From Phoronis australis (Eukaryota; Animalia; Phoronida): a stretch of DNA of 64,000 nt. Shown here in pieces: positions 7,261-54,909 of this stretch (within the stretch, counting starts at the first letter, position 1; the number at the start of each line of letters is the position of its first letter). The notes beneath the pieces were generated by a model, which did no database searches, was not told the origin of the DNA, and saw only the letters and a list, made by a program, of their open reading frames with translations. Position numbers and translations under genes: made by a program. The stretch spans positions 84,826 to 148,825 of the forward strand of contig NMRA01000232.1 of the NCBI GenBank assembly GCA_002633005.1, written 5' to 3'.

Positions 7261-9067
7261 CATTTGGGCACAAAAATGCAGAAACAGGTGCCAGCAAAAA
7301 GCAGTATATTTAACACCATGATAACAATAAAAACACGAAAATATCACAGCACACGAACTTTGAAAGTTCATATCGATACAAAAGCAAGCACTTGTTGTAG
7401 AAAATGACATCAAAACTGAATTTCAACATTCGTGGACATGTGCCAGTAAAATTAAAGTATAAAATGAAATGTATACACTGTTTTGAATTTTATAAGCTCA
7501 CCATTGTCAAGAGTAGACAGGCACTGATTTACTTCTACAAGTTTTAATTAGCGGTTTCATTTTGTCAGTAGCATTTAGCACTTGATTAATACGACTTATG
7601 AGGTAAGGCACGTGATCATCTATATTACCATAGACTATTGAACAGGTGTTGTCTATAATCTATGATATCATTTAATAACAGAAAACTTCTAGACATTAAC
7701 ATTTTGGTAGGTTCCATCATACCAGTAACTGCGACCATAGCTTGGAACATTCTAGAGCACATTGGCAGAACAATAGGGTAGATTCTAGAAGATTCTAACA
7801 TGTGCCTGAACTAGTGAAAAGCTCCAGAACACGTATAAATAGTTAAGCAGGAACTGCAAAGTCAGCAGCTTCAGGATCAGCGGCTATTTGTTACGTGAGG
7901 CAGTTATAGAGACAGCAAGTTACTGACACACAAGTCTAACAAGCAGGTTAACATTTCAAAACGAGTTATAACAGCAATCCATATAATTATAAAACGTTAG
8001 TATAACAAATAAATAAATAAATAAAATGAGCCCCCGCAATGATTAATACAGTACCTCTGACCACAAAGCTTTTTAACTCGGACACGACCAAGCACAACCT
8101 TGCACTGGATATTCATGGAAAATTAGCTCAACTTAACTGCTTGCACTTAGGACCCAGATTCTAATCTGGGGCTGTGACTATCCTAAGCTCCAACATGACA
8201 TGTTCGGTTCTACTTCAGTACAAACTTATCAAAGATATGGTGTATAATATCTCCGAACTTAAAGTGGCTGTCATTTTGAGCTCGGGTACTCTTTGGCTTA
8301 TGTGGAATGTCAAATCCGCATTGATGGCCTTTAAAGCCACGAGTTCGAGATCAACATGTACATACTTGGACTAGCAACTTGCCTGTGCAAATTGCGCCAC
8401 ACACACTAATAGATAATCATCAACAGAAAATATCAAAAATGATTTGGAGTTCGAACTTGAGTTTGTAAATTATAACCGAGCTCCGATTATGAAACAGAAT
8501 AGCATAGCAGCGTAAATATAAATTGCATAGCTAAATAGCGTCATCCCTATCTTACTTTGGAAAAAAACAGGAATGAAAATGTCGCGGCCCACTTTAGTTC
8601 CCGAATCGCAGCAAATTTTTTATGAAAATTGTTGAACAGAATACGTTCCCAGAAAAGAGCTGTATTAAAGTTAATACATAAAAAGAGGAGTTCCATGCGC
8701 ACAGGGAATGTTTCTGTAGCAACGGCTTGACAATGTGAAGTTCATGGAAATAATGTTTAAAAATACGAACATGTTATATCGAGTAAAAATGTACCACAAC
8801 TAATACAAAGATATGTAGACGGTTAGTCTAAAGCTCACTCACAAGTGAAAAAAAACAAAAGTTTCAGGATTACACTTCATGTTTTCTTTTAACACTGCGA
8901 GTCAGTGTTCGTGAGTATACACGGCTACATGGCATTGGACCGACTGAAGTTCTTTTAACTCCGACAGCACGTTCTGCCACCGCGAACTCAGTAAATTCCT
9001 GTAGTTCGAGACAGCGCTCAGCTTGGTCCATGCTGTGGTGTTTCATGAGGACTAATCGTCGGAGAAA

Positions 9068-9125
9068 TCACATCAACGTACACGTCTTCGATGACCGTTT
9101 CTGTTTTTGACTGGATTGGTCCTCC
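9068..9125 (-). CDS. NOS: NOS terminal exon 23 ([18 protein letters not shown]), CaaX-encoding
   Basis: Strong acceptor cttttattttcag. Phase 2 joins exon 22 (GT|G = Val), and the frame ends in CTLM-TGA. Confidence 0.72.
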
Positions 9126-12100
9126 CTGAAAATAAAAGTAAGTTTTCGCTCACGGAAAACACTTTACGAATCGTTGTGAATTCATTACAACGCATATACG
9201 AAACGTGCCTCGATATTTAGCTTCCAAAACAGGAAATGAATTAAAGTCCTTCTCTCACGCGTTGTTAACCCTTACTACATGGTTAGAAGATGTTATAAGG
9301 ATCCAACAAGTACCTACCCCATAACTAATACACGATCCCCGTACTCGAAAACAGTTTAAATGAACGCGCCACTCACGATTCGCACCCGAAGAAACACCGC
9401 CATTTTGAACTTGCCGCGAACCCGGAAGTACAATTCATTCAGGAACCCAGGCCGAGAAAACGCCGTCAGTGCGACTGGAGCAGTGCCTGTACTGTTACCA
9501 GCCAGCAAACGGGGATAAAAAAAAATCGACAGCGCGCCTTAATTTTGATAAAATCAAACTACGGACAATTTTATGGAATTTGCTGAAGAAATGTGGCGAA
9601 TAAATTTTGACAGAAATTATTTTGCCAGACTCGGGACCGCAGCCTATCGGACCCGGTGCGGATCGAGACCAGACACTGGCGAACGGTAAATGCATGCGGT
9701 TGCAAGCTGTTTTGTCGAAGTAAAATGGTCAAATGATAAATGCTGCATATATTCAAGGGTAGTTTCAGACACTTGCATGAAATTACGGGCTGGTTAGTCC
9801 TGTGTCACACTGCCGCGGCAGACCTTAGTTAGCCTCAGTCACCAGCTACCAGTGAAGACTATAGTCAAAATACAGCTTGTTAGTAGGCCTACACAGCTTT
9901 GCGCCAAGACTACCCTTAGGCCTAACTGGTCGCTGGCCACAAACACAAAAAACACGAAAATTGAACAAAGTTTCTTTTTTTGTAGCAACGTTTGTCAAAA
10001 TGTATCAACGTTAAATCTTCACAAATTATAAAGTAGCCGATTGAACATGCCTTTCAGTTAAGCAAAACTCGACATTGTAGGTGCCGCCAGAAATGAGACG
10101 AAGTCCAACGGGAATTGTGAGCACATTTTATCACTTAATGAGTAACAACTGCGATGCTGAAATTTGGTGAACACTGCTACTGAAATCGTGCAGAATAGTA
10201 AGTAAGATATGTCTAACTAAATTCCACCGTAATTTGTTGGCGAAAACAATTTACACAAAGTTTTAAACTTGTAACTCATCCCGCTGTCCTCCAATACATA
10301 TGGCCGACGCGATCCAAACAAAGTGACCCAAATTTCGCCACAAAACTTGCAATAACTTTACAGTACTTGCCCCGATTTTGATACTTTTTCGATTTTTACT
10401 GAGTAGAATGTACTACCTTTCCGATCATAGCAAAGTACTTTTTCAAAACGAGGAAAAAAATAAAACCGAAAAAAATTGGTTCGACCCATATTAGTTCCTA
10501 GGTTCGACCCGCCTACGTAAGGAACTAAACACCAATGCTATTTTAACATACTAAGTACGCGTAACATTCCACAAAAAAATCAACGACCACTAACTACAAA
10601 CTATAAATACACTACATATGCAAACGAATCACGATATATTACTAATAAAACAAAATAATGAAGACTTTTCGAGCAAGCCATAGCACATTCAGTTACAAGG
10701 AAAAAATGGCGGCGTTCAGGACAAGTTCCTGAACTGATGAGCCGGAAATGTGGGTCTGGAAATAACCGATGATAATCGGTAATCATACGCTCAGAGAGAA
10801 GGGTCAAATACTGTTAAAAATCGCTTTTGGCAAGAAAGGCGAAAAGAATGTAAAGATAGGGTGTCGAAAATAAGAATTTATGTAGTAAGTATTTTCGGAT
10901 ACTGGAACCACATGGGCAGTTTGCAAGAAGGACTTTAAGCCACTGCGGCTCATACGATTGGTCTCATAATATGCATGCCAGGACTTGGTTTCCATTACCA
11001 ACAAGATTATCAAAACCATCAACAACTAAAAATGCTTCTTTGGAGGCTTGGCTAACCCTAAAATTGCGAATTCGAAAATAGCGCGTGCACGCATTTCGTG
11101 TATCACGGTATCATTCGGCAACATCCGAGGATCACAGGAGGGGGTAATACTTTTAAACATCAAAGTGCTTTTTGGTTTAGAATTCAGCATTGGCAAATAA
11201 GCATCAGGAAATGTTCCTATAAACTTCGAACGGCCTTAGGAAGGCTGGAATGGTAGCCGGTTAGGGTTTTGGATGAGTTCAGTAGCTGTCTAGCGGTTAG
11301 AAAAATCTAGCCAAAATCACGTATTCACATTTAAAATACACGGCGTAATTCTGCTTTTCTTGCGAAGTGCTAGCGTTATTGAACTCTACCTCAGTTATCG
11401 ACTACAACACTCACGACCTGCATGCGTACACTTCTTCTCAAAGAGCTTTTATAACGTTGACTTCAAACGTTTTAGAATCATTTTTTATTTCGATTCTAAA
11501 TGTTTATTGCGCATGCGTACAGCCCTGTCGGTGAGTTTACAGTTGCATGGCCTTGAAGTCCCAGTTAAGTCAAGATTCGGCGTAAATATACTTACACCAC
11601 CTTGTACTTGTTAGTCAGAACCCCGAACACGTCCTCGTGGTAGCGCTTGGTCGTCTAAAATACATAAACAGTGTACACGCAATAAATTGGAAGAAATGGT
11701 ACATCGCTGTAACCATGGTAAGTACATGCAAATATCAACATCACGTGTATGCCTAAGCCTACTGTCCAATCAAAGTGGTGTATTTAAAGTGACAATAAAC
11801 CCATGCATTCCGACAAAAACAACTTTTGATTTTTTGCTTCAGACTAGGCCTATTGTGTTACTTGTCAGGGCGGGTTAGTAAGACAAGGCAATACGGCGGT
11901 CAGGAGAGTTCCAGGCTGTTTCAATTCCAACAAAGAATAAGAAAAAGTTGCTTTGAAAGAACAAGTACATCTGTGAACAAAGTATGAGGTTATTAACCTA
12001 AGAATATGGTTCATAGCGGATTTAAGAGCAATGTTGTCTTCAGTTTCTCAATATCAAAGGACTACAACTGGCGAAACGTTTTTGGTACGCCTCTTGCAAC

Positions 12101-15100
12101 ACTAAGACAGAACCGAAAATGTATAGAATATGTTGCAGTCATCGATTTTAAATTGAAAGTTAGTCGAAAACTATCTTCTCATGACGCAGCAGTAACTGAC
12201 AAGTAAAAATGATCAACGCTGTGAGGGACTCTCACATTAGAGGGGTTGAGAGAGGCGTGCCCGCGCTACCTTGGTTACAAATACGTTTCCCTTCTGCACA
12301 ATTCATCACCTCAGGGTAAGAACATTTGTACTCTGAGAGATAATTTTTGTTTTGTGCCGGGCTATCAGTGTCATTGTCACGAGAGTCTAGCAAAAGAGGT
12401 TTTGTCTCGCGAGGTTCTTTTCGCCAGCCCAGCCTGTCCATCATGCAACAGAAAGTCCTTTGGCAGATCAAGACAGACATAGAACAATAAAACTTTCAAC
12501 ATTACGACAGACATACTTTCATGACGTCGATGTATGTCTCCGCTTTCTGCGTCGTAAATCCTTTGTGTGTCCGCAAGATCTCAACAATTGAGATGTGCAC
12601 ATCTTCAGCAAGCTGAACACCTCCACACACATAGACGTGGCCTTTCCGCTCAACAATTTTTTCAGCAACATTTTTTCCATCTTCTTCCAAGATTTGCTGT
12701 ACGTATTTCTTAAATCAAATAATATACAAGTTACAAATAACTCGGTGAACTTTAAAAGTCGGAAACATTTCAGGACAAAAAAAATAATGAGTAAGTTAGG
12801 ATTCACATTTAATGGCCAAGACAAGATTTTCAGTGTCACAGGTAAGTATCAGTTGTCACAGCTTTCTGTTGCTTTTTCCATGTATAAGTCAAATCAATTT
12901 TGCTTTTGTCACATATGCATGACATAATGTTTGTCAGCGATAACGGTTGAATGCAATGATTTTACTCTTTAGGAAAAAGGATCTACCACTTGATGCGGCA
13001 TAAAATAACCGTAAACACAACAACACAAACTACTAACAGATTACATTCATGTGTGATGAGTATTGTCTCAGGATGATCAACGAAAATTAGTTTTACACGG
13101 AGTTGAGTACATCAGTTACTTTTAAGCACATTATTGTAAAGCAGGCTATGATTCCGACATTTATGTTTGATCAACAGTATCCTATAGGCTGTATTTAAAT
13201 TACTGAGGTGTTAACTTCATCCAGCCACTTTAAGTTATTCAATTGCTTGACTCCTCGTCATCACCATCTCCATCTTCTTTTTTCACCTTTTTAAACAAAT
13301 CTCCCATTTCTCATCGACAAACAAAAAATAACATGACAGACTAGATTTTGAAAACTCACAAAATGTTACAGAATCTCAGGCAAGCAAGTTTTGTCACAGA
13401 TTGTCAACATGTCACAGGGTATCAATAAGAGTGCCAGCAGTCTTAATGTGGATTAAATATGCTTGAAACAATCTAGTCATGCATCAAATTTTACTTCGAA
13501 CAAGTAGGTGAGAATCACACTGAATACATCTTATTACCGTGTTTCATCTTTAATTTCAACAATTGCTTTTTTGTCTGACGAGATATTATACGGATTGTAT
13601 TGACGACCGCGGATAGGCCACGCCTACCATAACTATCGTTGCGAGGCCTCACAAGCCCAATATGGTGGAAGTCGTATAGCGTACTACAGCATCAAGTTCT
13701 CTGCATTTCTGTTTTATAACATTTCACTGAAACTGATTCCACATATGGAGCGTGAGCAGCAAACTAGGTTAATAACGTTCTGTGTGCCATCAACACCCAC
13801 AGTACCTCGTTTAATTGTCAATAGACATTATGTACTATTAAATATTTTTTAAACGCCATGAAGATGAATTTCTTTCACATTGTGCTTGATCATCACCGAT
13901 GCACGATAACACTCCATGCTTATCCAGGCGTATATTTATCTAACCACCGTTGAAGTCTACTTCGTGTTTTTATCGGCGACAGGCACTTTTCCTTTTTTGT
14001 TCTCTAAATATCGTTGGCGTACATTACACGTGCCCCAAGCGCACAATAAAGCCACCTTTACGCTTTCGCTCACAACCAATCATTGTGGGACAAAGATGAC
14101 AGACAACATGCTGCCGCGAGATGATTGGCTGGAATTCAGCTTGATTGGCATGTCGGCACCATACGTTCTCTTGTGTTTAATATGCTATGTTTATTGCTCT
14201 TCTACCAGAAAGTTGAGCGCTAATAATAAGCCCAATTATCATACTGGAAATGAAATTTGCAGTAAATGTACTAACTATCAAAATAATGAAGAAAGTAGTA
14301 ATTTAACAATGTTAACGATAAGGCACGATGAAGGCGACAACGACAACGGAAACCATGGTGACAGCAATCGTGAAAATGATATTCGAACAATACTGCTATC
14401 ATTCACAATATAATAATACCAATAGCCATAAAATATGTAAAAATTATAACGATGAACACCTTTTTGATACCAGGCTCTCTTGAGTAGGCCACGTGAACAT
14501 TTTGTAAAGCTCCTGCATTTTTTGCATTCTCCATCTCTTCTTCGTATAAATGAGTTTCCTTGGTGCGGCATCCAAATATTAGAGTCGTGTCATATATCTC
14601 GTTGCCAATTCGACCTTATGAAAACAAGTGTACAAATAAGAGAAGCAGAACATAGATTGCATACATAAAAACATCTTGGTGAACGTAACTTTAGAGCGTT
14701 CTCAAACTTAAATTTGAATGCATATCGTATTTATAAAATTCCAAAGTAATTCAATGAATGAGGTTGATGTTGCTTGTGACGTTAATCGTCGGCGTTTGAC
14801 TTGTGCGCCCGTGCGCAAAAGGCAAAAAAATTCAGAAAAGTCAAAAGTTCTGTCAAAACACCCCAATTTTTCACAAAAGACATGGTGTCGACTTCGTGTA
14901 CAAGTATTCAAAGTGTGTAGACGGATCTTTAGAAGCCAAATCTGTGCCGAAACTCGCTGCCGATCAAAACAAACATTCCAGCAAATTTAAGAAAGTGACG
15001 AAATGCTCTGTGACTACACAATGTCCATGCTTTCTTAGCGTTGTGAAAATTTGTCTTCTGAGATCGCACATTTGTTGTATCCTTTACATGTTGTTCTCTC

Positions 15101-18100
15101 TTGTTATTATTTGTCAGAGTATACAAAACTGGCAGTATTTATGCTACGGTTCCACACCAAGACGAATGACAAGATAGAAGAATGTGGCTATCATTTCCAA
15201 GGTTATGAAAGACGTTCTCGACTAATTTGTGCATTTAGTCAAATATCTACAAAAATATAGATTTTAACCATTAGTAAAAGTATATTTTATCTAAAAGTAG
15301 AAAGCCTGTAGAGATAGACGTTTGACCATATACTAGTCATCCATTATTTGGCCATGTAACTATGTCTTTTAGTAAAACTTACCAAAAAGAAAGGTACATA
15401 AACAGCAAAAATGACGAAATTTTCTTTATTATAAATGCTCAAGTTGAAATCTCGAAAACGCTGTTACAGTTTTCTAAATTACCGTTTCATGAATACCATA
15501 AAAGCACTATTTTTCGTAGCCATTCATGAGAAAGTGAAACGTTTTTAAAAACCTTACCTAACAACGTTTTAAAAAGCAGTGCATAAATCATGAAATCTGA
15601 AAATTTCATATGGGTCCAATCAACATTTTTGAGATACGATGCTCCGAAGTTTGAGGAGACAGTGTGGCGTGATGGTTTCAAACTCAAACTCCCGTTTGCG
15701 AGGCCGTGGTTCAAATCTTGGCTTTATTTGTAAACAACCAAGTATTGCATAAAGGCCTCTCCTGCTCCACTGAGCTCGGTCTCAAAGATTATATGCGAAG
15801 GAGTGGATGAGAACCTGGATATATTTCAAAGGTGATTTCTGGAGATGCGCTAAAAAGTTTTCTAGATTTAAAGATTTCTCTAAGGTGTTACAGTGTATAA
15901 CCTTCAATTAAAATAACCAGGTTACCTTTCAAGTTGTGAGCAAGGTGCTGCCAAAATCCCCTGATAGGTGCTATACCAGAACCAACAGCTAAGAAGATGA
16001 TTGGAACTGTTAATTCCGAGGGCATATTGAAGTCAGGTGAGCTGAAAACAGGGAAGGATGATGAAAATAGGGAGTAAACAACATGCGGTAGTAGTATGAT
16101 TAAACTAAACATTTTTGATAAAAATATTGCCTCAAACCTGAAAAGGTCTGCAAAACACTCTTAGTGGATATTTTTTCTTTTTCATTACTACACAGCTTAC
16201 CTCCATCTCTCGTTTCTGCACGATATCACTTTTTAGTAAAGTCAACTTCGGAGAGTATATTTAATTCAACTAGTGCACAAAGTTATACGTGGTCAAATGA
16301 TTACAAATTACATAACCCGCTTTGTATTCACAGACAATCCATTTTTAAATTAAACTTACAACACAGTTTTCTTTCTTCCTGCAAAAATAACAGCTTTTGC
16401 TGAAAGAAAGTACTTACGGTTTAACGAAGATGGGTATTTTCTCGCCAATGGACACTTTTTTAAGAAAGTTTGTGGCGACGCCCTGTCGATGAGGCCTTGG
16501 CGAATCTATGATGGAGAAATTGATGGATGTATTCCAGCCTTTGGTGACAAAATTAAGTGAACAAGAACTAGCTTGTCCTCCCAGCACTTTAAATATCTTC
16601 AGATTTATCGTTCTAGTACTGAATTTTGAATGTTTACATTTGGTTTTTCTTGTCCAGATTTTGATTCTTTTCCTTTAGTACGTTTAACAAGTGCTTTCAT
16701 TGTTAGTGAAAGTCAATGTTTAACTTATTTTCTCGTAAATATTGTACTATTTCAAACCAGGATGACTTCTGTATTGACTTGCTTTTCAAGAGGACTTTCG
16801 CAAGAAACACGATACAATACAAGGTAATACAATACAATACAATACACTGAAACATAATACACTACAATACAATACAATACAATGCAATACAATACAATAC
16901 AATACAATAAAAAAGAATACACAGTTGATATTAAAACACCATCCTCAGCTGAAAAAAAACACTGGCTATCTTGCTAAGCCCAACAACAAGTAAAGATACA
17001 CAGTCAGCTACAGGAGAGTTACAATAGACTAGACTAACAATGACAACCTGTGGTGTGCCAGTGGCCTATTGAGACTGGGCTTACACCAATTAATATCTGG
17101 GGCCTCACGACTTTTCAGCTTCCTTGTTGTTTCTGCTTGGTCTGTTATAGCAAAGTCACTGAAACAACTTTGTTAATAACAATGTTTGGAGCTCTGTAGA
17201 TGAATATTAATATGTGAACTTCTGTCAAAATTTAGATATTCCCTGGTCCAAGTTTTCAAATGGTGAATAGTTTCACCAATGTAACTGGAGTCACATCCAG
17301 CACAGATAAACGTGTATACTACCCTGGACAGTAGACCCATAGGAATTTTGTCCTTGGTAATAATTCACCAATTTGTTGAGTTTTCGTTGAGCAATCTTTG
17401 CGTAAAAACCAGCATTGGGTGTTTTAAAATACCAATTTATGTGTGTTGGGTGTGGCTGCACTTTCAACTAATTTGAAAACCCAGAGCAGGGAAGTTCTAA
17501 ATTCTGACAAAATTTCACATATTAAAACTCATGTGCAGAGCTCCAATCATTGTTACGAGCAATGCTCTTTCAATGACTTTGCTATAATAGACCAAGCAGA
17601 AGCAACAAGGGAGCTGAAAATTCGTTAGGCTCTACATATCAACTGGAGTAAGCCCAGTCCCAATAGACACTTTAGGTTGTCATTGTTAGTCTAGTCTACT
17701 GTTACTCCCTGTAACTGACCGTGTCTGTATATCATCATTTGTTGATGGACCTATATTTAGTACTGTGGCCACTGTTTTTGCTTCTGGGGTTGTTGTTCTA
17801 ATAAACATGTCAAGCCGATTTAAATCCATCAATGTTCTTAACATCATATACTACTACTTGCTATCATGGAAAACAATACAATGCAATGCAATTCAATAAA
17901 ATTCAAATCAAAATAAACAAGTCTTGGAAATAAATGATAATGATAATAACATACAAGACAAGTTATAAATAAGGGCATTTCAATATTGAATTACATAATA
18001 ATTAGAGTAGCAGAGTGCTACGATTGGATTTGCATGTGAAGAAGCATGACAAAGGGCTTGACACATGCGTTGCATTGTGGGTAAATACATGTACCTTCGA

Positions 18101-21100
18101 ATGAGAGTGGTTGTGTGCTATTTCAGGACCGACATATTGTAGTTGAGCATTCCATGCGTTATGCGACAGAAAAATGTTGATGCCTGTAAATATTATATGG
18201 TGAAAACTTCATACATTTATTTATGTCTCATTTAATTATTCAACGTACTTGGAACGTCGTAGCTGACTACGGAGAATGTCAGTGTCATTTCATTTGGCGT
18301 GACTCTCGGAGACGAGCTGACAGAATACAGTCGAGGCTGAAGGACGGGTAACTGGGTGAGGAGAAGTGTAGGGTCAAGGATGAGGGACGGGAATTCGACC
18401 AACACATCGACAACTGATGACGCTTTTTGTTGTCTCCATCGCGTGAACTGGGATTTACCCTGCAACAAACCACGTAAATTTTATAAACCCTATTCTACAC
18501 AACGTGTACATTTGGAAGTCAGTGAAATCTCGGAATTGGCAGTTTGAAGATTTTGCAAATGTGATCTTACTAAAAGTTATACCGTGTTACGCGCCTTTAG
18601 GCCCCTAGGCGGGGTTATATCAAAATAACGCTTTTGTTCGCGACCTCTTTTACCCAAGTGGTTCGCATATAAGCCCAGGTAATGTCCCCTGCATAGGCTC
18701 AAACATTGATTTGCATGTAGGCGCACCCATTTTGACTACCGCTGTGCCTACTAATGGAAATTTTTTACGTCTGATAGGTAGCTTTGGCGTATTTTCAAGA
18801 AATTTGGTTGGGGAATAGTTTTGTATTACCGTAGTGCCGCGCAGACGTCCATGGGCACTTCTGTAACATAGTCTTTGAAGAGTAGTTTAATATACCAGTT
18901 TTTATTGCACTGCCTATTTGGCAGTTGTGCTTGTGTTTCATGTTTAAATTTTACGGACTGGGAAGTAGAAAAGGAGAACAAGAATGCGATGACGAATCTC
19001 TGGGAAATGCTGATAATACGTGAGAGTGTGAACTGAATTATACCCTAACGATATGCTCTTCACCGAGCGGAAAAGGCAATTCACTACAAACTGGAAAGAT
19101 TGCAACAGGATTCCATGTACATACCTCGAAACAGATATGACAACGTATTAGGTTGCTTTCACTTGACTTTCTTTGCTCTTACCTTGGACAACACCTTTAG
19201 TTTCGATTTCTCTGAGGAATTTCTCGTCAACAGAGCAAGGCAGCCTAAGAACTCCGGTGTAGGAGGAGTAGTGATGTCGAGATACTGAGTCAAGGCAGTG
19301 CGTAAACTGCAGGCCGGCAGCCTAGTGCTTTCTAGAATTAAATGATAAATTACGTGCGTCTTTCAGAAAGTTCCTAAAATTACGATTTTGCGAAGTCAGC
19401 ATGTTCATTTTTTCAAGCAGGTCGTTCAGTGTGTCGCATCCTCGTGAAAAACATGCGACGGCCTAATGAATGCGACGTAAGCAGTTCCTCAACAGAATTA
19501 ACGGGAGACAGTTCCAAGACATCACAGTGGCGGATCTAGGATATCACAAAGGGGGGGCAACATTTTGTCTGGCTGTAAGCATTTGCGCAAATCACGATTG
19601 TAGATGCGCATAGCACCGAATGGGGGGAGGTCGGCAGGGGACAAACCCCCTCCCGCCCAGGAAATTTTCCTGTTCTTTCCTCTAAAAATCAAGCATTTTC
19701 CTTGATTCCTGAAGTACTATACAAAAAGGGCAAGAAAAAAAAAAAAAAAAAAAACACGAAGAACAACGTGTCAAGCAGGAAAAACTGCAAATTAATACCA
19801 GCGACTCGAACTCACCAACTGGCGGATAGAGCGCGCGTGCTTTACCACTACACCACCACGACTTAACTACAAATCTTACTACAAAGAGACCTACTTGTTT
19901 ATAGTCCACAGCGTTTGGGCGCGAAACCTACTTCTTTTTGCAATGCACGTTTTATATTTTGTGCAATCGATTCTTAACAAACTTGTTGTATTTTTAATGC
20001 CCAAAAGACCAAATCCGTTTTTCGTTTTGGCAATAATGACGGGATTGCTTTGGAAATCGTCTCAAGTTAAGGTTTGACAAAGAGAGAATTATGAGTTTCT
20101 GAGTGATGATCAGTAAGGCTTCGATTAAAATGCACATCTTACCAGCAGCTTCTGTTTTTTCATCGTCACTACATTTTCTTTAAAAAATGAAGTAAAATTT
20201 CTTCCTTGCACAGTGGAGCAGACGACGGAAACGGAGTCGTAGTGCGCAGCGCCACTACCGGTCGCCTGGGATATCGCGGGAGAGCCTATACTTAGCCATA
20301 GTTCCGTTACGAATGCGCCGTGTTCCGAATTTGACACTTGAAATTGGATCTGAGCCCCCCCCCAAACACTAAAACTGCACACATTTAAATCTTGTTTCAT
20401 CCGTATAATTTTAATTACCGAGGTAAATTAATAAACTCAACATTTCCCAACGCTCTTGCTGTTTTATTTTTTTTCGGCAGCCAAGGGGGGGGGGGGCGGG
20501 CCCCCTGCCCCCCCTAAATCCGCCAATGGGTCATAAGGGCCTTTCATACTAACGTTGACGCGTCGATGGTTTGGGGAGTTGCGGTCAGTATGAACGTTTA
20601 ACTCCGGTCCTGGATCGAAGTTAACAGCTCCAGTTAACGTCGCAGTTGACAGGTGGATTTAACAGTGCAGCGTCGACGCTGCGGTGCAGAATGAACGATT
20701 AACTTCGGTCCAATCGAAGTTATCACCAGATGCCACAGTTACCGTCAACAATTACAGGGAAGTGCTGTCACTAATAGCTGCATTTGCTCTAATAGCAACC
20801 AATCGATTTAAAAATAAGTTTAATGTCAATTAGCACAACCAATCGATTTAAAAATAAGTTTAATGTCAATAAGCACATGTAAATGTTCCCAAATTGTCAC
20901 ATTGAAAAAATCTTAGCGGGCAGCGCTACCTTGCGATAACTGTGATAACGACAGCGTCACGTCCCATTTACTTCGATGTTCATTAGCTACCAAAGCCAAT
21001 ATGAACGGTCCAGTTAAAGGAAAAGTCAACCTTTTTCATGTCATTTTTAACAAAAATAAGGTTCTTTGATTGCAATTTTTCGTAATTTAATTAATTATTC

Positions 21101-24100
21101 GTCCTTTACTCCGGAAGTGACGTTTTGGGAGGCAAGAATTTCGCGCCAATTGTTTTCCTATAGTGTAACTGTGACTATAGAGCTGTCAAGTCAGTCATTG
21201 TTATACCTCGGCAGTGACAAGTTCGGTCGTCGTTTGCTTTTGCTTTCGAGTCAGTCAACGTGCCACTGACACTGTTGCTGCGTACCAGGATGTACTCATT
21301 ATCGCCCAGAGCATGTAAGCAGCCCTGCAGCGATGTTGAGTAGAGGGAGTGAATACAGGGCCCGTTCGACACCAAGACAGTTCGTCGTCCAATGAATAGA
21401 TCGGTGAGCTAAACTTTGATAAGTTTATTGAGGACTTGTTTACAGTATTGGAGTTATTTAGAAGGTGCCTGGTGTGTGGCAAGGGAGTCACACGGCGGGA
21501 TGTAAACAGTTTGTGTGCTCAAGTCACCATCCAGTGTGAGTATGTCGCGGGACACTCGGGCAAGTGGGGCAATTGTTCCTCTGTCGGTGAGACGACAATG
21601 AGTGCAGTTCGGTACACAGCAACAGTGTGGCATGTTGACTGACTCGTAAACAAACTACTACCGAACTAATCACAACAGAGGTAGAACAATGACTGACTCG
21701 GCAGCTCTCACAGTCAGACTATATGAAAAGAAATTGGCGCGAAATACTTGCCTCCCAAAACGTCACTTCCTGAGTAAAGGACGAGTAATTGTTTAAATTA
21801 CAAAAAGCTGTAATTAAATAAAAAACATGTCTGTGATAATCAACGAACCTTATTTTTGCAAAAAGGTTGCCTTCGCCTTTAACTGCGCTGTATACGTCGA
21901 CGCTCCGCTCAGACCGGAGTTGAGTCAATATGAAAGGGCCTATACTGGTAGTTTGGTTGGATGAACATTCAGTGAGTATGGATTATAGAAAAATACAGGC
22001 TTTAACTCCAAGAAATGTTTTAAATGATATTACTCATTGATTGAGAAAACTCACTTGAAGAAGAACGCAGAACAGGCAAAAGTAAAACATATGATACTTA
22101 CGAAAAGTCTTTTGGGTGGCTTGGTTGTCGTTTATGTCAATTTGTGGCAACTCAACTATAACCGGTATATCACTATCAGCATCAGCGGCCAACCGTTTCA
22201 GGATCTCGGCCACCATCTCCGGGTCATTTTTTGGAAATATCGCTACATGGTCTCCCGGCTGGTAGGATACATGGTCGTCCAGTTTCAAACAAATGGACAT
22301 CTTCATATCACTAAGTTAAAATGGAAAAAGAAAATTGGAAATTTTTGAGTATTTTCATTAAATTTTAGGTTGCAAATTAGAGATGATAAACTCAAAATCA
22401 TGCTACTGTGTTAGAAATATCAAGGTCTGCCATGGAAAAAGTAGGTAGTTTTTCAAGTCATCATCTCAGGCCTCAGACTGTAGGCTCTTTGACAATAATA
22501 ATTTCACAGTTGGGGAACTACATCCACAAAAAGTAAAAATTTACCTTTGGCTTTGCGGTGGGTGCAAATCCAACTTGTTTACCACTTTTGCTTCAGAGAT
22601 GCGGTGTTGATAATGGTGAACAGTTTCCAGTCCTAAAATTTGTAAAAAATGTGCTGCTAAAAGGTGTGAGTATGTTAGGTTAGAGTGGACACAATTCCGA
22701 TTTTATATTCCGGAATTTATTACCAGGACGTTGATTCGATTTCATACCCTTGAATTATTTTGTTGTTGCGCCGAAAATACCGAGTCTAGCCCAGAGAGGA
22801 CAATTTCGAATTCATCTACACATATATCCCGAATATCTCTAACAAATTTATGGGATGACACAGAAATATGTTCACAAATACTTTGAAATATGGATACCAG
22901 AAAATGATTTACTGTATTCCAGGAGTCCCAAAGTTTTGCCTGTAAGACACAGAAGGCCAAATCAAACACAATTAAAATTTTCTACAGGCATAAAATACAA
23001 AACCAGTTCTTTTAAATGCTTTTCACCATGACCAATCACATATGTTGAAAATCTTCGATAACTGCACAAATGATGCGAAAACTCGAAAATTTTTGTTCCC
23101 TATACACTAAGAGTGGTACTGTTTCTAACTTCCACATACTCAAAACAAAATTTGGGATTCTTGAAAACATAATCAGTTTCAGTAAAACCGTATCTTGGGA
23201 TTCATACATGTATTTAAGACTATTTTTGTTAAAGCTTTGTGCCAGAAGTTGACTGTGTGTTTGTTTAAAAGGTAGCTATGCTTTGTGATTGTACGTGGAT
23301 GGAGAAAGAATGGCTAAATCTCTGACACTTTGGAGCACCCTGCATTCCAAATTTGCACTCTAAAAAATAACATACATGGGATATTAAATACATTCTATAC
23401 TCATTAATTATTATGTCAGTGCCCCGACAATTGATCCACACAAGAGATGTAACAGCGGAATAAAATCAAATTAATTTTCCCCATTAAAATTCAATTCTAA
23501 TTTGTCAATACTATTGGGGCACCAATTCCAAAATAAATGGGGATAAAAATTCCGTAATTGTGTCTGCTCTAATCCACCATAAACGTGCGTAGTAGATTCA
23601 CTAATCAAAAAGTTCCGAGATCCCTCCATCAAAGATTAGTTGGTCCCAATTGAGGATCTATATTTTTGAAAGCCTCGAACATGATCACCTGAGGGCCGAT
23701 GAGGTGGGTGGGGGGTGGGGGGCAATTGTCACTCCATGTGCCACGCGATTACATTTACGTTATTCAATTATAAAAGGATCAAATCGATAGAATGTGTAAC
23801 CGCGTACATGTACGCCTTTCTGCTCATCTCTCGAGGTGTCTATTTTTTCTCAAACATTTTCGGAAGCTTAAGTACTTCCGCGTTCAACAATGCCAAAATA
23901 CAAAACAAAGCACGGGACTAATGATATAACGAACCTTTGACGACCATTTCTTCGTTTTTTGCCGTAATTAAATGATATTTGCCCAGAGTCCACGTGTCTG
24001 TTGCAGAGTTACTGTTAATGACGTCATTTATTTCACGTTTCGTCTGAATATTGAACACTTTGCATGATGTCTGGAAATGAATTAAACAAAGAGCTAAGTG

Positions 24101-27100
24101 TTGCGTCTCATCTAACCACATGTACTGATGCACTGAACATAACTAGGAGAACACATAGGAGAGGTACATGGAAAATCACTGGTTGAGAAAGGAAATTATG
24201 TCAGTCACAGAAATACATTTTCTCATAGTTGGAATTAAGCATCATTAACGAGAGCAACGCAGAACGTTGAAATGCGCCCACGAATGCATCACAAATGGTG
24301 TGCTTTTAGGGTTGCTTATTTGTGCCATAAAAATGGCCACTAGATGGTGCAAAAACATACAATCCATCCAAAAACGAAAACATGTAATTGCTTCTTTAAT
24401 AGAAAGCTATACACCAAATTTCATAGAAATCCGAGAAACAAAGGAAAACATAATAAAATGAAATTGCCACTAGGGGCACAGTGTTCATTGGATCCGCCTG
24501 AAAGTCGTCATTGTCTGTTGTTATCTTCACACAAATACACTTACAAAATTTAATAAAGATCCTGCAGTGGGTTTAGGAGATACATCTATGGGCACAAAGC
24601 TACCACTAGGAGGCGCCAGAGAAGTCAAAGTCGCTATCATCAACGGCCGTCCTCTTCACACAAAACATTTACGCCAATTTTCTACACCATCCTTTGAATG
24701 ATTTGGTTGATAGAGAGGTAGAAGCCAAAAAACAGACTCGAAAACAGTAACAATGGCCACTAGGTGGCGCAAGGTACTTTGATTCCATCCGAAAACGGGA
24801 GTATATCAAATAAACACAGAAAAATCAGGAACCCCAACTGGGAATCGAACCACAGGTCTCTAGATTGCCGGTCTAGTGCTCTTACCACTGAGCTACTGAG
24901 GACTCGACATGTGCGCAATTACTGTTTACAGCCAACTGTTATGTCATACATCCCATGAGCGGCGTTTCGCCTTTTTCGCACGGGATTTGGACAAATATGT
25001 AATATACAATCAGCAAATTACCAGTATGTGTTAATTAGATATAGTAAATATATAGACGCTGAGGTTGGCCAGTAGTGAAATATATCAAATAAACACAGAA
25101 AAATCAGGAACCCCAACTGGGAATCGAACCACAGGTCTGTAGATTGCCGGTCTAGTGCTCTTACCACTGTCCAAATCCCGTGCGAAAAAGGCAAAACGCC
25201 GCTCATGGGATGTGTGACATAACAGTTGGCTGTAAACAGTAATTGCGCAGATATCGGGTCCTCAATAGTGTCCGTTCGATCCGCCTGAAAGTCGTCGTCT
25301 GTTATCTTCATATAAATTCACTTACTAAATTTAATAAAGATCCTGCAGTGGGTTTTGGATATACGGCAATGGGCGAAAAACAAAACAAAACTACCACTAG
25401 GAGGCGCCACAGTAGCCAGTCACCATCATCAAACGTCCCCTTCACACTGAAAACATATACGCCAATTATCAAAACCATCCCTAGAATGATTTGATTGATC
25501 GAGGGGTGGACGCCAAAAACAAGATTCGAAAACAGCAAAAATGGCCACTAGGTGGCGCAAAATACCTCGATTCCATCCAAAAACAGGATGATAGCGTCAT
25601 CTCACTAATAGATGCCTATAATTCAAATTTTTATGAAAATTTATTGAGGACCTTTGAAGATACAGACTGGTAAAGGTAAAAATTGCCCCTAGGGGACACA
25701 CCAGTTGTCAGATCCGTTGTCAACATCATATCAATACACTTAAGTAAAGATCCTGCAAACGGTTTAGGAGATACAGCCATGGGCGCAAATAAAAAACAAA
25801 ACAGCCACTAGGAGGCGCCACAGTAGTCGAACTAGTCGGAAAATCATCGTCAGCTGTCCACTTCCTATTAAAAACACATATGCCAATTTTCACACTTATC
25901 CTGAAAGCGGTTTGCTTGATAGACGAGTGGACACCAAAAACATACTTTAAAACAGTAAAAATGGCCAATAGATGGCGCAAACTAGGTCGAATCCATCTGA
26001 AAAGTCACCTCATTAAAAGATGCCACAAAAATGAAATTAAGTTGAGGACCTTTGAACGTACAAGGGTAAACGTAAAAAAAATAAAATTGCCACTAGGTGT
26101 CAGATCCGTCCGAAAGTCATCGTCGTCTGTTGTCAACATTATATAAATACACTTACTAAATTTAGTAAAGATCCTTCGAACGGTTTAGGAGATACAGCCA
26201 TAGGCGTAAAAAAACTGCCACTAGGAGGCGCCACAGTAGTCGCAATCATCGAAAAATCATCGTCAGCCGTCCACGTTATAGTAAGAACATACGTGCCAAT
26301 TTTCACAATCATCCTTTGAGCGGTTTCGTTAATTGAGGAGTGGACGCAAAAAACAGACTCGAAAACAGTAAAAATGGCCACTAGGTGGCGCAAACTACGT
26401 TGAATCCATCCGAAAACGGCAGGACAGCGTTATCTCACTAATAGGTGCCTATATACCAAATTTTACGAAAATCCGTTAAGGACTTTTGAACATACAGAGG
26501 TAAACGTAAAAAATTAAAATTGCCACTAGGGGGCACACCGGTAGTTGGATCCGTCCGAAAGTTCGTTCATGCCGTCCCATCCACAGAAGGAACACATGTG
26601 CAAAATTTCATGAACATACGTCAAGGCGTTTTGGAGATAGAGCAGCGGACGCCGGACGCCGGACACCGGACGCCGAAAGCCGGTCGCCGGACGGTCGGAC
26701 TGACGGACGGAGATGACGGCATAATGCGTTCACATATAAATATGTGGGCGCATAATAAATGCACTTACAAAATTTTGTAAAGATGCTGCAAACGGTTTAG
26801 GAGATATAGCCATAGGTGCAAAAAAAAACAAAACTGCCACTAGGAGGCGCCACAGTAGTTGAAGTCGGAAAATAATCGTCAACCGTCCTCTTCATAGACC
26901 CTATTCACGCCGACAGGAGGTGCGTTCCAAAACGAGGCTCGCTACGATAGCTCTGGTGGCTTATCCGCGTAATTGTACTCCGCGTTGCTCGAACAGCTAG
27001 AAAAAATATGGACACTCTGTTTTACAATCCCTAAGGACGTTGGGATCCGGAAGCGTTGGGTCCTTGCCATACGCCGCGACGAAGAAAAATATGTCCGTGT

Positions 27101-30100
27101 AAAATTTATAACTGTTTTCGAATCATAATTTGTCGCATCTCGGACTGGATGCCGCCATCAACGAGAACCGGATAATCTTCGGCCAGCCAGGCTGTATTTT
27201 CATGACTATATGGGTTGAAGAGCGATGCATTTTTCTTTACAAAAAGGACAGGGCCCTCAATCCCTCAATTTTGGGGCCAAATATCGGCTCTATTCCCCTC
27301 TCAAAAATATTGAAAAATCACGCGAAATTTCCGGCCACGAGGCCTAAAAATCCCCTTTGTGATTGAAAATTTCGCTCCAACGGTTCAAATCACCTGTGAT
27401 CACAGAGGTGACAATTTGAAAAAGTAAAAAATCATAGACGGATTTAGGGGGGCGGGGGGCAGGGGCGCGGCCCCCCCTTGACTGCCGCAAGCAAAATAAA
27501 CCAGCAAAACGTGAAGCGGGAGCCGTGAGGAGACTTGTACTGAGTTCGAGCTAGGACCGGTAGCGGACAAGAGGGGGAAACACGTTCCGTTTTATTTTTT
27601 TAGTCCAACGACAGATTTCCTGAGCAGAAAGTATACATCCTCGGCGCCCGCAACTTCCGGGCCGCCTGCGTGCATACTGACAATCGCGCTTTGCCCGCTT
27701 GTCCGAGGATGTCGGGCCCCGGCTCCCTCACTAGGCTTATATGGTATCCTAGATCAGCCACTGAAAATGCTACTTGAGACAGAGCTATTAGAGCTTGCAA
27801 AAGGACGGGGTGCTATTGATGGTGATCGGTAGGTCAGTAGAGTTTTCACTGACCGGTCACTCGGTGAACAAACGTTCCCTTCTCAGAGGGCCGCACACAC
27901 ATGAGGCACCTTTCCCATCGGATATGAACGAGGCCTCTGAAGAAACATGATAACTATGCTTGTTCCAGGGGGATCCAGGACTTTGAGTTGGGGGGGGGGN
28001 NNNNNNNNNNNNNNNNNNNNNNNNNGGGGGGGGGGGCTGGGGCATAGCCCCTTGGCTCCCCTCTAAATCCACCACTGTGTTCTATCCAGTTAACTCAAAT
28101 TGAGCTCTAAAACGAGGTTATGCTTTGGACGAAAGAATTACATAGGTGTTTTAATTTTAAAATTCAACTTGGTCGAGATTGATATTTGAAAAATATAACA
28201 CATGGAATAGACGTAATTATTAAAACCAAGAAAGCTGAATTGGTGGTCATATAATTTTTATTTTCAATTGCGAGCCTAGTTTTTTATCGTAATCAAAATA
28301 TATATTTAATAACATCAAGTATTATTTCAGATCAATGACAACTCAACTGTTAGTCCCGGTAGTGCCTACCTCACCAGGACCTAGGCTATGCTTGAATCTA
28401 CTGTAATAGGCCTACTCTTGATCAACAAATTAAACCAGATGAGACTAATTGCACATGACAGCAAAATGCTATGAGCCACCACTGTCGAATATGTCTTCAA
28501 CTCGTCAACAATAGGACCAGATGACCTGGTTCGTGTAGAAAGCATTTTTATCAAAAATTTATTGGATGAAACGTAACCCTGCATTCAGCATGATACCTAA
28601 TCCGTAACACTACGATCGCAGCAATTTGGTCATGTTTACTTTTCATGTTTCGAACCTAGTTTTCCTGAAAAAACCTATATCCTTTCGTCAGACAACTCTT
28701 TGGTGCATTGACTTGTTCTTTAACTGTATATTTCTACGTCTCTGGGGTTAATTATTGACATTTTTAAGATTTAATATTCAGGTTGGTCTCCAAAGACCGG
28801 CCATTTAACTCACGCAATGTAAATTTCCGCTTTGTTTATCGCAGTGGGCCTCGCTTTGGATTTTAATGTCCGCCGCGTGAATAGAGTCTATAGCAAGAAC
28901 ATACATGCCAATTTTCACAATAATGCTTAGAGCGGTTTGGTTGACATAGGGGTGCACGTAAAAAAAGACTCGAAAACAGTAAAATTGGCCACTAGGTGGC
29001 GCAAACTATGTCGAATCCATCCGAAAACGGGAGGATACTGGCACTAATAGATACCTATATCCCAAATTTTATGAAAATACGTTGAGGACCTTTAAAGATA
29101 CATAGGTAAACGTAAAAAACTAATATGGCCACTAAGGGGCACACCGGTAGACGGATCCGTCTGAAAGTTCACTCATGCCGTCCCATCCAAGCAAGGAACA
29201 CATGTGCAAAATTTCATGAACATACGTTAATCGGTTTTGGAGATGGAGCAGCGGACGCCGGACACCGGACGGACGCCGCCCGGACGGACGGACGGACGGA
29301 CCGGGACGGACGGACACAGATGACAGCATAATGCGTCCACATATAAATATGTGGGCGCATAAAAACGGAAAATCACATTCTGGCATATTCAGGATGCCAT
29401 TTTCCATAAAAAAAGAATCCGTCGCTTTTGATTTGACAAGGATGAGAAAGAGAATTATGCGTCGAACCAGGAAGTCACTGTAATGACTCCCTGGTCGACC
29501 TGTTATGAACACCAGTATTTACAGTGTTCAAAGACCAGAAATCACGTTTCAGACATACTGCACGTTCCCTCGCTCTCTGTCCAACCCTTCCTCCTTTCCT
29601 CTCTCCCTCAATCCCCCCTCCCTCTCTCCCTCAATCCCCCATCCCTCTTTCCCTCCCTTCCCTCTCATCACGTGCACTGTTTAAGAACGCCCCCTACCGT
29701 GAATACGCTGCCGAGCCATTTCTTGAACATTTCAGCCTCAGCGTGAAGTTCGTCTCCGGTAGCTAGTGGCAATATCTGCTGAGCATTTACAGCTTTGAAT
29801 GTTTTGTCCACGTTTTTGCCAAACTTGCAAAAGTTTAGGTAAGCACTTGATCCCAAGGCAAAGATGGCATACTTGGTCTTTGGAAGACGCTTACTGAAAA
29901 AGAGGCGCATTAAATTGATAAATTGCAATTAAAAGAAATCTAAAACACAACAGGCGTGAGTTGAATTTTAGTTGAACTCAGGTCGAGACTAGACGTCCAC
30001 GTTGCACGCGTAAGGTAGAAGACTGGACACAATTCCATACATTTCAGAATTGATGCTCCCATAACATTAACCACTACGTATATGTGTTTATACCCTCATA

Positions 30101-33100
30101 ATTCGTATATTGACGTGTTGTAAAGTGCCAGCTTATATTATCCCACAGTGGTGAACTTGTGTTCCTTTACAAATGAACCAACAGGATTAGATTTTTATAT
30201 AGTGGTAATAACTTTATTACTTCAGCCGATCAATCGATAATTTAATGGGAGTACAAAATCGAATTTAACAGCCCCATATAAAATGAATTCGTATTGGAAA
30301 AGGCGATGGGGCATAAATTCCGGAATATATGGGGCATCAAAATTCTAGAACTATGTCCACTCCGACCTACCATACTCCAGCACTGCTAAAAAAGCTCTGC
30401 GATTTACATACCCTTCCTTGGCAAGCTCCTGAATGTCAGAGTAAAATTTGGCGCCGTTGGTGGGCGGGTCACCGTTACCAAACGTACTGGCGATGATAAG
30501 AACGAGTCCCTCCTCTGGCAAATTGGACACGTCGTAGTCGTCCATACATTTCACCTGAATGTGTGTGAAAACTTTAGAGTAGTAATTTTAGCCAATTTGT
30601 ATGAGTGCGACATCAGTTTATTCATTTTAATAAAAGTAACAATAAGGGGACCATGGGGGGGAATCGCCACGTACAAAGAATGCAGTACAGTGTAGGCCTA
30701 CATGTATGTTAAGGCATTGAAGTAACATCTATGGGCTCCATTCCGACCATAATATAACCATAGAAAAGCAAGAGGCCTTGTTCAGGGAGTGGCAACGATT
30801 CCTTTAACCACAATACCGGATCAGCAAACACGATATTCGCGGTACAAATCCCATGGCATACCCGCCCCCTTAAGCTCCAAACACAAGGTGACTAAACTCT
30901 AGTCCAGTTGACCAATTCGATGAAACCAAATTACCAATGGATTAAAACAGGATTGGAAAACGTTGCCTGTCTGTCGAGCGTAGCGCTCAGATTTTCCTGT
31001 CTCAGTCGCGTACAGAACAAGAACTCTTGGTTGGTTTGTCCGTAGTTTTACCGTCAAGGATGAACAGAACAAGACGACACTAAAAATGCAAAAAAGAACC
31101 GTATTCCAGAAACACATAGTACCAGTATTGTTATTGTCACGGTAGTTCATACGATCGTATGGCATTTGATCATCCATATTATTCATATACAAAAGAGGGC
31201 GCTGCATCAGTTAAATAGCTACAAACTGACGCTTAAACAAATTTCAACGGGCCATCTACAATAATGACTGAAAAGAATTCATAGAAAGCCTAATACCAAT
31301 CACATTTATAGACTTTAGTTCACTCAGAATAATAGAACCGTTTGTAAACTCAGAAACTCTTCCCTGGAGTTTGGCGTTAATTTTACTTGGTTATCACGCT
31401 CCACGTCAAAAGAGAATAATGAGCTTGTTCAAAGTTTCATCTACACAAAATTGATTAATGTCAATCACAAAATTTATCAACATCAAATAGTTAAAAGAAA
31501 ATTGGTATGTTAACGTACGAAGCTGCACTTTTGAATGAATGGAGTTTTCGCGAACCAGTGGCCATCTTGAATTTCATCTCCATGTGGCAGCTATTCCATA
31601 CGTGTGTCAGCCAAGCGTCGCTGATGTATTCGTACGACGGACGCAGATGGTAATTCAACATCTCCTGGTGCCAGACTTTACATAAGCTGCCACCTATCGG
31701 CGGCACCACCCATACCCAGTCGGCGGGACATCCCCTGCGCAACTTCTGCTCGTTAGTCATGTGAGCCATGAACGAATCAGAAGCAGAATGATGATCAATA
31801 ACTGTGGCACCAGCTTCCTGTAAAATATTTTGATTGACGTTTTTAACCGATCCCATAGTCGCTCCAAGGGACCTCTTCTAACTAATAAAGCCAGCCATGT
31901 TCATCAGTTCCAAAACACAATTGCTCAATTTTTAGTAACTGAAAAAGTTGCATGTGTCAAACGCCGAGGGAAAGATTTTTTTGGTAAACGAAAAGAGCCA
32001 TTGGTGCGAATTCACCCAGATCGATGTTCAATGAAAAACATTACGTTTCACACATACGAAAACACCCTTTTATAAAAGGGCGTCAGCCGAAAATTTAAGC
32101 AACACCAAGTCCATGTCACACACATGATTTACTAAATTCAACGAAATTAGAACACAAACCTTGTAACTGTATAGTATAGCTTTGTTGACCTCCACAAAGG
32201 CTTCGTCTTTCCATAGTGAGTAGTTAGACCTAGTGTCTAAACCCATCATTTTGGCAATAGTCTGTGAATAAATGAACGGCAGTCACAGGCCTCGCATAGT
32301 TACTGTTTCGACGGTCTCACAAGAGCAAAGCCAATTTGGCGTTATTCATTCACAAGCATTACTACAGAAACAGCTTTTCACGATGTTTTTTCAGTAACAT
32401 TTCACAGAAAATGTTACTATGTAGAGTCCCATTGTCTAAATAGACCCTACGAAAGTAAAGTAAAGTTGCAGTGCCTGAATATTCTTAGGTAATTCTGGTC
32501 TTTACCCTGACTCACTGCGACCTGCGCTGATACGCCGTAAAATGTAAAGTTATGTCATTGTTACATTTTACGTTGCTACATTTTATGTAATTGTTACAAT
32601 TTATGTCGAATGCACCTGCGAGAAATTTATCATTGTTACATTTTACGAAAGCGACATCATATTTCATGAGTTTGTATGGTATTTGTCACACGGAGGAAAA
32701 CCGTTGACACACTAAACGCCTTCTTTCTCGGATAGTGTGAATGAAATTCTATCAAATGAGCCAGGTCGACTTGATAGATGTGTCCCTATGCACTTTCCAT
32801 GTTTTTTAACATGAGTAGTTTTATAGTATTGTCAAAAATGTTCAGAGAACAGTTTCAACTCCACACGAAAGGAGTTTTACAGGATCAGGTACCAAGTTTT
32901 TTATTGTTAAAGCGTTCTTGCAAATCTTTTGTTGGCGCTCATAAACCAACTGTGTATCCCACATCAGTAAACACGCTTCCCTTGGTATGAAAAATAATGA
33001 CATCATATTTGGTTAGTATTTATCGTATTTCTTCGGGAACGAACGACAAAAACATTTTTTTTCATGGAGAATTCAATTTCGGAAGCCAATTTGATAGACA

Positions 33101-54579: not shown

Positions 54580-54909
54580 GTTATTCCCCACACCCTGATC
54601 TGCTAACCCTTGTTTCCTGGAAAGCAATTGTTTGATGTGAGTCACCAAGTCAAATTTTATTGGCTAACGAATACACGTAACCTGCAAAACTTATTGTCAA
54701 TGAGGGGGGGAACTGGAAGTACCTATCTGAATGGTTTCAAAAGCACAGGAGAGTCCGATTTTAATTTCGAAGTCCAACAGAAGGAGAAATTACAATTATG
54801 CATACACACTACGGGATGATAACTAATTCCTATACACATTTAATGGTAGGAATTGTTTCGTTTAATTGTGGTACATGGTTATATGTTTGGTCAAACAGTT
54901 TGTTACCAT

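Follow-up and report, generated by a model that had tools for sequence, protein, structure and literature searches.

A putative farnesylation signal at the C-terminus of a nitric oxide synthase from Phoronis australis

Nitric oxide (NO) cannot be stored, so the location of a nitric oxide synthase (NOS) sets what the NO it makes can reach. In the endothelial enzyme (eNOS, vertebrate NOS3) the acylation motifs are N-terminal. In the papers considered (PMC10342570, PMC7400543), NOS is described as targeted through a PDZ domain or through acylation motifs, the latter comprising myristoylation and palmitoylation motifs in eNOS (PMC10342570). A gene of Phoronis australis raises the question of whether such an enzyme can instead be held on membranes by its opposite end, through a prenylated C-terminus. 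A first-pass annotation of the locus had proposed that the last exon of this NOS adds a CaaX box preceded by a Ras-like basic stretch. The literature on NOS in combination with CaaX, prenylation or farnesylation, most subscription journals lying outside it, yielded in its available portions one engineered case, CAAX-eNOS, and no natural prenylated NOS. The string "prenyl" does not occur in a review of chordate NOS (PMC10342570), a review of eNOS localisation (PMC11678294) or a paper on placozoan NOS (PMC7400543).

We analysed a window of 64,000 nt, the whole stretch of contig NMRA01000232.1 (assembly GCA_002633005.1) from 84,826 to 148,825 of the forward strand, and all positions below are those of the window. 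What is cited from PMC3260459, PMC5014548, PMC6888304, PMC7400543, PMC9231725, PMC10342570, PMC11152559 and PMC12932508 refers to the available portions of these papers.

The gene and its last exon

Searches with homologues (tblastn) and fitting of GT-AG introns gave an intact animal NOS gene on the minus strand, running from 54534 to 9068, with 23 exons and a product of 1105 aa (Table 1). The reading frame is uninterrupted over 3318 nt and all 22 introns are GT-AG; for exons 1-17 the basis of the model is homology rather than reads. The product aligns with known NOS over its full length in blastp. Pfam matches include PF02898 (oxygenase) on exons 3 and 9, PF00258 (exons 11 and 12) and PF00667 (exon 17) above the cut-off, and PF00175 (exons 19 and 20) slightly below it when exons are scored singly. 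Catalytic motifs that are kept are the heme-thiolate Cys, the Zn CxxxxC, the substrate Glu, the pterin Trp (DWVWVVPP) and the shielding Phe (HEDVFG). Between the two halves of the protein, a basic-hydrophobic stretch aligns with the linker of a Ptychodera flava NOS (XP_070568864.1) and is by this alignment a putative calmodulin region. A departure was noted in exon 7 (34778-34949), where the substrate site has TEIARNF; most NOS have TEIGxRD there, a motif longer by one residue and with Asp rather than Asn after the Arg. Going by the motif, inhibitor or substrate binding may be altered.

Table 1. Coordinates of the NOS gene and of the element in its last intron (window positions)
Feature	Position	Strand	Evidence or remark
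3' untranslated region	8200..9067	-	strand-specific depth 3-17; coverage extends to 8200, the limit of the mapped region, or further
Exon 23, last exon, coding part	9068..9125	-	18 whole codons and stop; CaaX Cys is residue 1102 of 1105; spliced reads
CaaX box CTLM	9071..9082	-	motif farnesylated in reporter proteins; predictions
Last intron, GT-AG, phase 2, 2470 nt	9126..11595	-	joint in 3+5+2 reads
Multi-copy 1.7-kb element, 13-nt terminal inverted arms starting TTAA	9241..10938		two-strand deep RNA coverage; loose ends at both borders
Second donor in element (GT at 9317), joined to exon-23 acceptor	9317..9322	-	2, 0 and 15 reads (X2, X3, X4)
Exon 22, NADPH-domain end with HEDVFG (FAD-shielding Phe), start of tail	11596..11654	-	joint 11654/12517 in 3+5+2 reads
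Exons 11-21, FMN, FAD and NADPH domains	12517..30554	-	homology; joints 12708/14460 and 16041/16418 in reads
Exons 2-10, Zn CxxxxC, heme-binding, substrate Glu and pterin Trp motifs, calmodulin-site region	30935..50288	-	joints predicted from homology and GT-AG
Exon 1 (predicted), start MGEDELTS, no PDZ	54421..54534	-	in-frame stop 9 nt upstream of the ATG

Exon 22, a number that agrees between the first-pass annotation and our 23-exon model, carries a GTAAGT donor in phase 2, and the acceptor, a CAG in a pyrimidine-rich context, has 9126 as its last base. After this splice exon 23 is in frame and places Cys at -4 and Met at the very end, as the annotation had read from the letters. RNA confirms the join. 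Three raw RNA runs of one study (X2, X3 and X4), chosen by species label and of which about 18-19% each was read, contain 3, 5 and 2 reads across the joint 9125/11596 (CT..AC on the plus strand), ten spliced reads that give the same counts at a 97% likeness threshold. The first mates of these reads all lie on the plus strand, which fits RNA from the minus strand, as in most stranded libraries. The assembled RNA set X1 has no contig with the joint. Joints further upstream were found in the same three runs at 11654/12517 (3, 5 and 2 reads), 12708/14460 (6, 6 and 4) and 16041/16418 (0, 5 and 3), and the joints listed include none between exons 19 and 20. At 97% likeness the exon-22 donor joins only 9125 among the six joints listed. 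An intron-retained form, with a stop one codon past the donor, was rejected: depth is 0 at 11386-11587 inside the last intron in all three runs, and no reads of retained intron were seen. Among 40 of the 65 base differences, none lies within 9068-9125. The spliced CaaX tail is real and transcribed.

Not all RNA over the last exon is NOS mRNA. The multi-copy element in the last intron is probably a non-autonomous DNA transposon, of a family that we take to be Kolobok- or piggyBac-like, and it supplies a second donor to the exon-23 acceptor. In run X4 the joints of the last exon come mostly from this donor (15 versus 2), so part of the last-exon expression is not NOS mRNA. In the same run the last exon has a depth of 14.8 versus 1.2 for exon 22, about tenfold, which points to a transcript starting in the element, and the element-donor RNA looks like such a transcript rather than an isoform of the NOS. 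An ATG at 9322-9320 falls in the CaaX frame after the element-donor splice and opens a 20-codon ORF (9322-9318 joined to 9125-9068, minus strand). The putative 20-residue CaaX peptide would be similar in size to a prenylated pheromone precursor.

The annotation had also described the enzyme as having neither a PDZ domain nor an N-myristoylation signal, and both parts of this description agree with our results. Nine N-termini of PDZ-containing NOS gave no tblastn match in the window, which includes 9.5 kb upstream of exon 1. The N-myristoylation consensus calls for Gly2, a non-acidic residue 3 and Ser or Thr at position 6. The predicted start MGEDELTS has Gly2, but Glu3, Asp4 and Leu6 make it, judged by eye, a poor candidate. 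The loop in the FMN domain has 26 residues in this enzyme; two NOS2 have 23 and NOS1 has 65, so the architecture is iNOS-like. With no PDZ found and no autoinhibitory loop, the enzyme as predicted is not of the nNOS type. In these features, and in a short tail without an equivalent of R1400, it resembles vertebrate NOS2 and amphioxus NosB, the latter described as lacking both PDZ and autoinhibitory loop (PMC10342570). It differs from them in that trees place it with neither, leaving it as a long, unplaced branch, and in that NOS2 and NosB tails in the set compared lack Cys at -4. An enzyme without PDZ and myristate need not have an anchor of another kind, since PDZ-less NOS without a CaaX exist in the amphioxus NosB cluster, sea urchin, sea star and abalone.

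The tail as a prenylation signal, and similar tails elsewhere

The tail follows the CaaX rule, with Cys at -4 of the C-terminus, an aliphatic a2 and Met as X. That a CaaX ending in Met is a farnesyltransferase signal, as the annotation had stated, is well founded for this particular box, since CTLM is farnesylated on other proteins (PMC5014548, PMC11152559). It is identical to the CaaX box of the yeast G-gamma Ste18, is fully farnesylated and Rce1-specific when placed on Ydj1 (PMC5014548), and is treated as a canonical substrate of both yeast and human farnesyltransferase (PMC11152559). In a table of 8000 motifs, three of four predictors of prenylation (SVM, PrePS and Freq) give a score of 1 to both CTLM and CLVM, the latter being the end of XP_070568864.1, and the fourth, FlexPepBind, gives both 0; CTLM additionally scores 1 for cleavage, and CLVM belongs to the positive prenylation training set (PMC9231725).

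A six-frame scan of the window returned 3310 stop-ended frames of at least 12 aa, 11 of which end in a broad CaaX. The NOS tail is the single frame ending in Cx[VILM]M, and also the single one with a CaaX and at least four basic residues among the eight before the Cys. By a rough composition estimate, a broad CaaX with four basic residues has a frequency of about 2e-5 to 5e-5 per C-terminus, a figure to be read with the pattern having been defined after the tail was seen and the scan spanning very many genes. Our analysis of the motif makes it likely that the tail is farnesylated at its Cys and the enzyme membrane-anchored.

The description of the basic stretch as Ras-like was borne out only in part. 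K-Ras4B has a polybasic run of about six Lys beside its farnesylated Cys. The NOS tail does have four K/R among the eight residues before the Cys, but with a net charge of +2 over 16 residues it falls far short of that lysine run. It is similar to K-Ras4B in combining a CaaX with basic residues and nearby Ser (KRSS, four residues before the Cys); in K-Ras4B the nearby Ser is phosphorylated, and this S181 switch is a target of PKC and PKG2 (PMC6888304). There is no second Cys in the tail for palmitoylation. Ras needs a second signal to reach the plasma membrane, according to the title of a reference cited in PMC6888304, and together with the weak patch this means that the destination of the enzyme is not fixed as the plasma membrane. 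Either the plasma membrane or endomembranes could be reached.

Similar tails were sought among other NOS. Out of 441 retrieved proteins, 284 are longer than 600 aa and have a recognisable terminal motif, with 135 distinct ends; this set is rich in vertebrate NOS1, has few NOS3 and arthropod NOS, and is not a fair sample. A search with exon 9 gave 57 proteins, the best at 59-70% over the exon. An exon-weighted profile search, considered for its best 120 of 6482 matches, mostly reflected the sea-urchin sequence in its first row, and a search with the C-terminus of XP_070568864.1 was considered for its best 120 of 3723. Cluster representatives searched with exon 21 gave 127 matches, with a best value of 35%; many are short fragments or belong to other diflavin reductases. 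Three of these have Cys at -4 (P0264, P0273 and P0311) and were rejected as short exon read-throughs into an intron that lack the HED motif. No true orthologue of the phoronid enzyme was found, the best full-length identity among the matches listed being about 43%. An Atlas search with the tail of XP_070568864.1 gave only scores below 0.9, and the supplements of PMC10073611 gave no matches.

Elsewhere, a single NOS ending in a CaaX was found. Among the matches listed, 283 of the 284 NOS lack Cys at -4, PDZ-less invertebrate NOS included, and the exception is the Ptychodera flava protein XP_070568864.1 (P0105, NOS1-like), which ends KTGRSSSLCLVM. This is a single predicted RefSeq protein of 1152 aa and the one member of its cluster; it has no PDZ and its box is CLVM. 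Its last 12 residues are identical to those of the phoronid enzyme at six positions, and the two tails share a K..RSS..C..M layout, with basic residues followed by RSS and then CxxM. The two proteins otherwise differ, being 41% identical, with an FMN loop of 62 residues kept in the Ptychodera protein versus 26 in the phoronid one. In the predicted model of XP_070568864.1, residues 1133-1152 have a pLDDT below 50, which, given the thin alignment there, is only weak evidence of a flexible, exposed end. For one Cx[VILM]M to turn up by chance in 135 distinct ends, p is about 0.004-0.014.

Trees speak against a sister relation of the two. In them XP_070568864.1 is the sister of a Glandiceps PDZ-NOS, and FastTree paired the phoronid enzyme weakly with another long branch; exon 3 is misaligned in one alignment (A2). 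A clade of the two CaaX-bearing enzymes was rejected by the AU test with p 0.034 (21 rows, LG+G4) and p 0.004 (15 rows, C20), so that the CaaX tail likely arose twice and XP_070568864.1 is not evidence of conservation in the strict sense. To judge from the sequences, the two tails were likely gained independently, although the long branch leaves convergence favoured rather than proven. Among the NOS retrieved we also noted that of the hagfish Myxine glutinosa (P0045, annotated NOS1), whose first residues, MGASET, could allow myristoylation.

Mode of action and rival readings

The gene encodes a spliced, intact NOS, without PDZ and without autoinhibitory loop, whose last exon adds CTLM, and our analysis leads us to think that this box is probably farnesylated and would then tether the enzyme to membranes by its reductase tail. 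By the established CaaX pathway, farnesyltransferase would modify Cys1102, after which Rce1 would remove TLM and the new carboxyl would be methylated. The four basic residues would modestly raise the affinity for acidic lipids. Since NOS is active as a dimer, two farnesyl groups would be present, and the resulting avidity could offset the weak patch. Local production of NO, with a higher output near membranes, would be the expected effect, as in the engineered CAAX-eNOS. That enzyme, from the Fulton laboratory, reportedly carries a K-Ras tail at its C-terminus. Targeted in this way, eNOS is found at the plasma membrane, is active and releases more NO (PMC3260459), which indicates that anchoring of this kind leaves catalysis possible. 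If its CaaX is used, the phoronid NOS would likewise be held on a membrane by a CAAX signal, although its tail is natural rather than artificial and is less basic. It would also be similar to eNOS in being targeted by a lipid, but eNOS has the loop, and the lipid of the phoronid enzyme would be an isoprenoid at the C-terminus, on the reductase side.

The rival that fares best, though we consider it unlikely, is that drift produced the CaaX in the rapidly evolving tail of an enzyme that acts like a cytosolic iNOS-type NOS, where the box may even be farnesylated but has no selected role. The long branch of the phoronid NOS and the high variability of NOS tails fit this reading, as do the other PDZ-less NOS that manage without a CaaX. 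The scan spans many genes, and one broad CaaX among 135 distinct ends is not rare by chance (p 0.08-0.19). Drift accounts less well for a textbook motif with basic residues upstream, found at one of 3310 frame ends, and for its recurrence with the same layout in a second PDZ-less NOS. A farnesyl group and methyl ester, once in place, shifted the localisation even of a cytosolic chaperone in Ydj1-CTLM (PMC5014548).

Farnesylation could also fail if the Cys of the folded enzyme is out of reach, either because the tail lies against the reductase domain, as it does in nNOS and eNOS, or because it is buried in some other way. The tail is just 28 residues long, and in nNOS the tail forms a helix (T1401-I1413) at the FMN/FAD interface (PMC12932508). 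That helix, however, spans +6 to +18 after the shielding Phe, while the CaaX lies at +25 to +28, 7-10 residues beyond the end of the matching stretch, and should therefore be reachable. The anchoring R1400 is moreover replaced by Asn in the phoronid enzyme, and CAAX-targeted eNOS both localises and works (PMC3260459), which together make a hidden Cys improbable. The same comparison lends no support to a further suggestion of the first-pass annotation, that lipidation could be coupled to electron flow, and such a coupling is speculative. At the offsets of R1400 and S1412, the positions through which the nNOS tail exerts control, the phoronid enzyme has Asn and Lys, and the CaaX lies past the tail-helix stretch.

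Least probable of all is that the T-L-M end is a PDZ-binding ligand rather than a prenylation signal: the mammalian iNOS C-terminus acts as such a ligand, and Thr at -2 with a hydrophobic last residue resembles class I, but Met is an unusual class I end, and XP_070568864.1 has Leu at -2, yet Cys at -4 and Met are common to both enzymes. Processing of the CaaX would moreover remove TLM (PMC5014548).

Beyond the farnesylated tether itself, a bolder interpretation is conceivable, and we put it forward tentatively, regarding it as doubtful. Prenylation might be a third natural route of NOS to membranes, one that invertebrate paralogues lacking PDZ have acquired on two or more occasions, and the Ser pair of RSS would serve as a farnesyl-electrostatic switch. 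Feedback from a kinase (for example through NO-cGMP-PKG) might then move the enzyme on and off membranes and reposition the regulatory tail on the reductase. The proposal of a switch builds on the RSS that precedes the CaaX in both enzymes and recalls the S181 switch of K-Ras. Were the anchor real, it would be a natural C-terminal isoprenoid, apparently gained twice, and the part of the protein that in other NOS tunes electron flow would here bear a lipid. NO output would further be tied directly to the mevalonate pathway, and the engineered CAAX-eNOS would have a natural counterpart.

Other features of the window

Two related broken ORFs lie in introns of the NOS gene, at 21178-21654 and 43844-44718. 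Their Cys pattern, MPxCCCVPxC, is presumably THAP-like, and they are probably transposon remnants. Just upstream of NOS exon 1, a long tandem repeat with a 15-nt period occupies 54850-55790, and shorter copies occur near 26500-26750 and 29100-29330. Just downstream of the gene, the minus strand carries an intronless ORF of 811 aa (2883-5318) that resembles ADAM10/17 metalloproteases and has the HELGH zinc motif; its Atlas matches were confined to eukaryotic ADAM10/17 clusters, and it is possibly a retrocopy.
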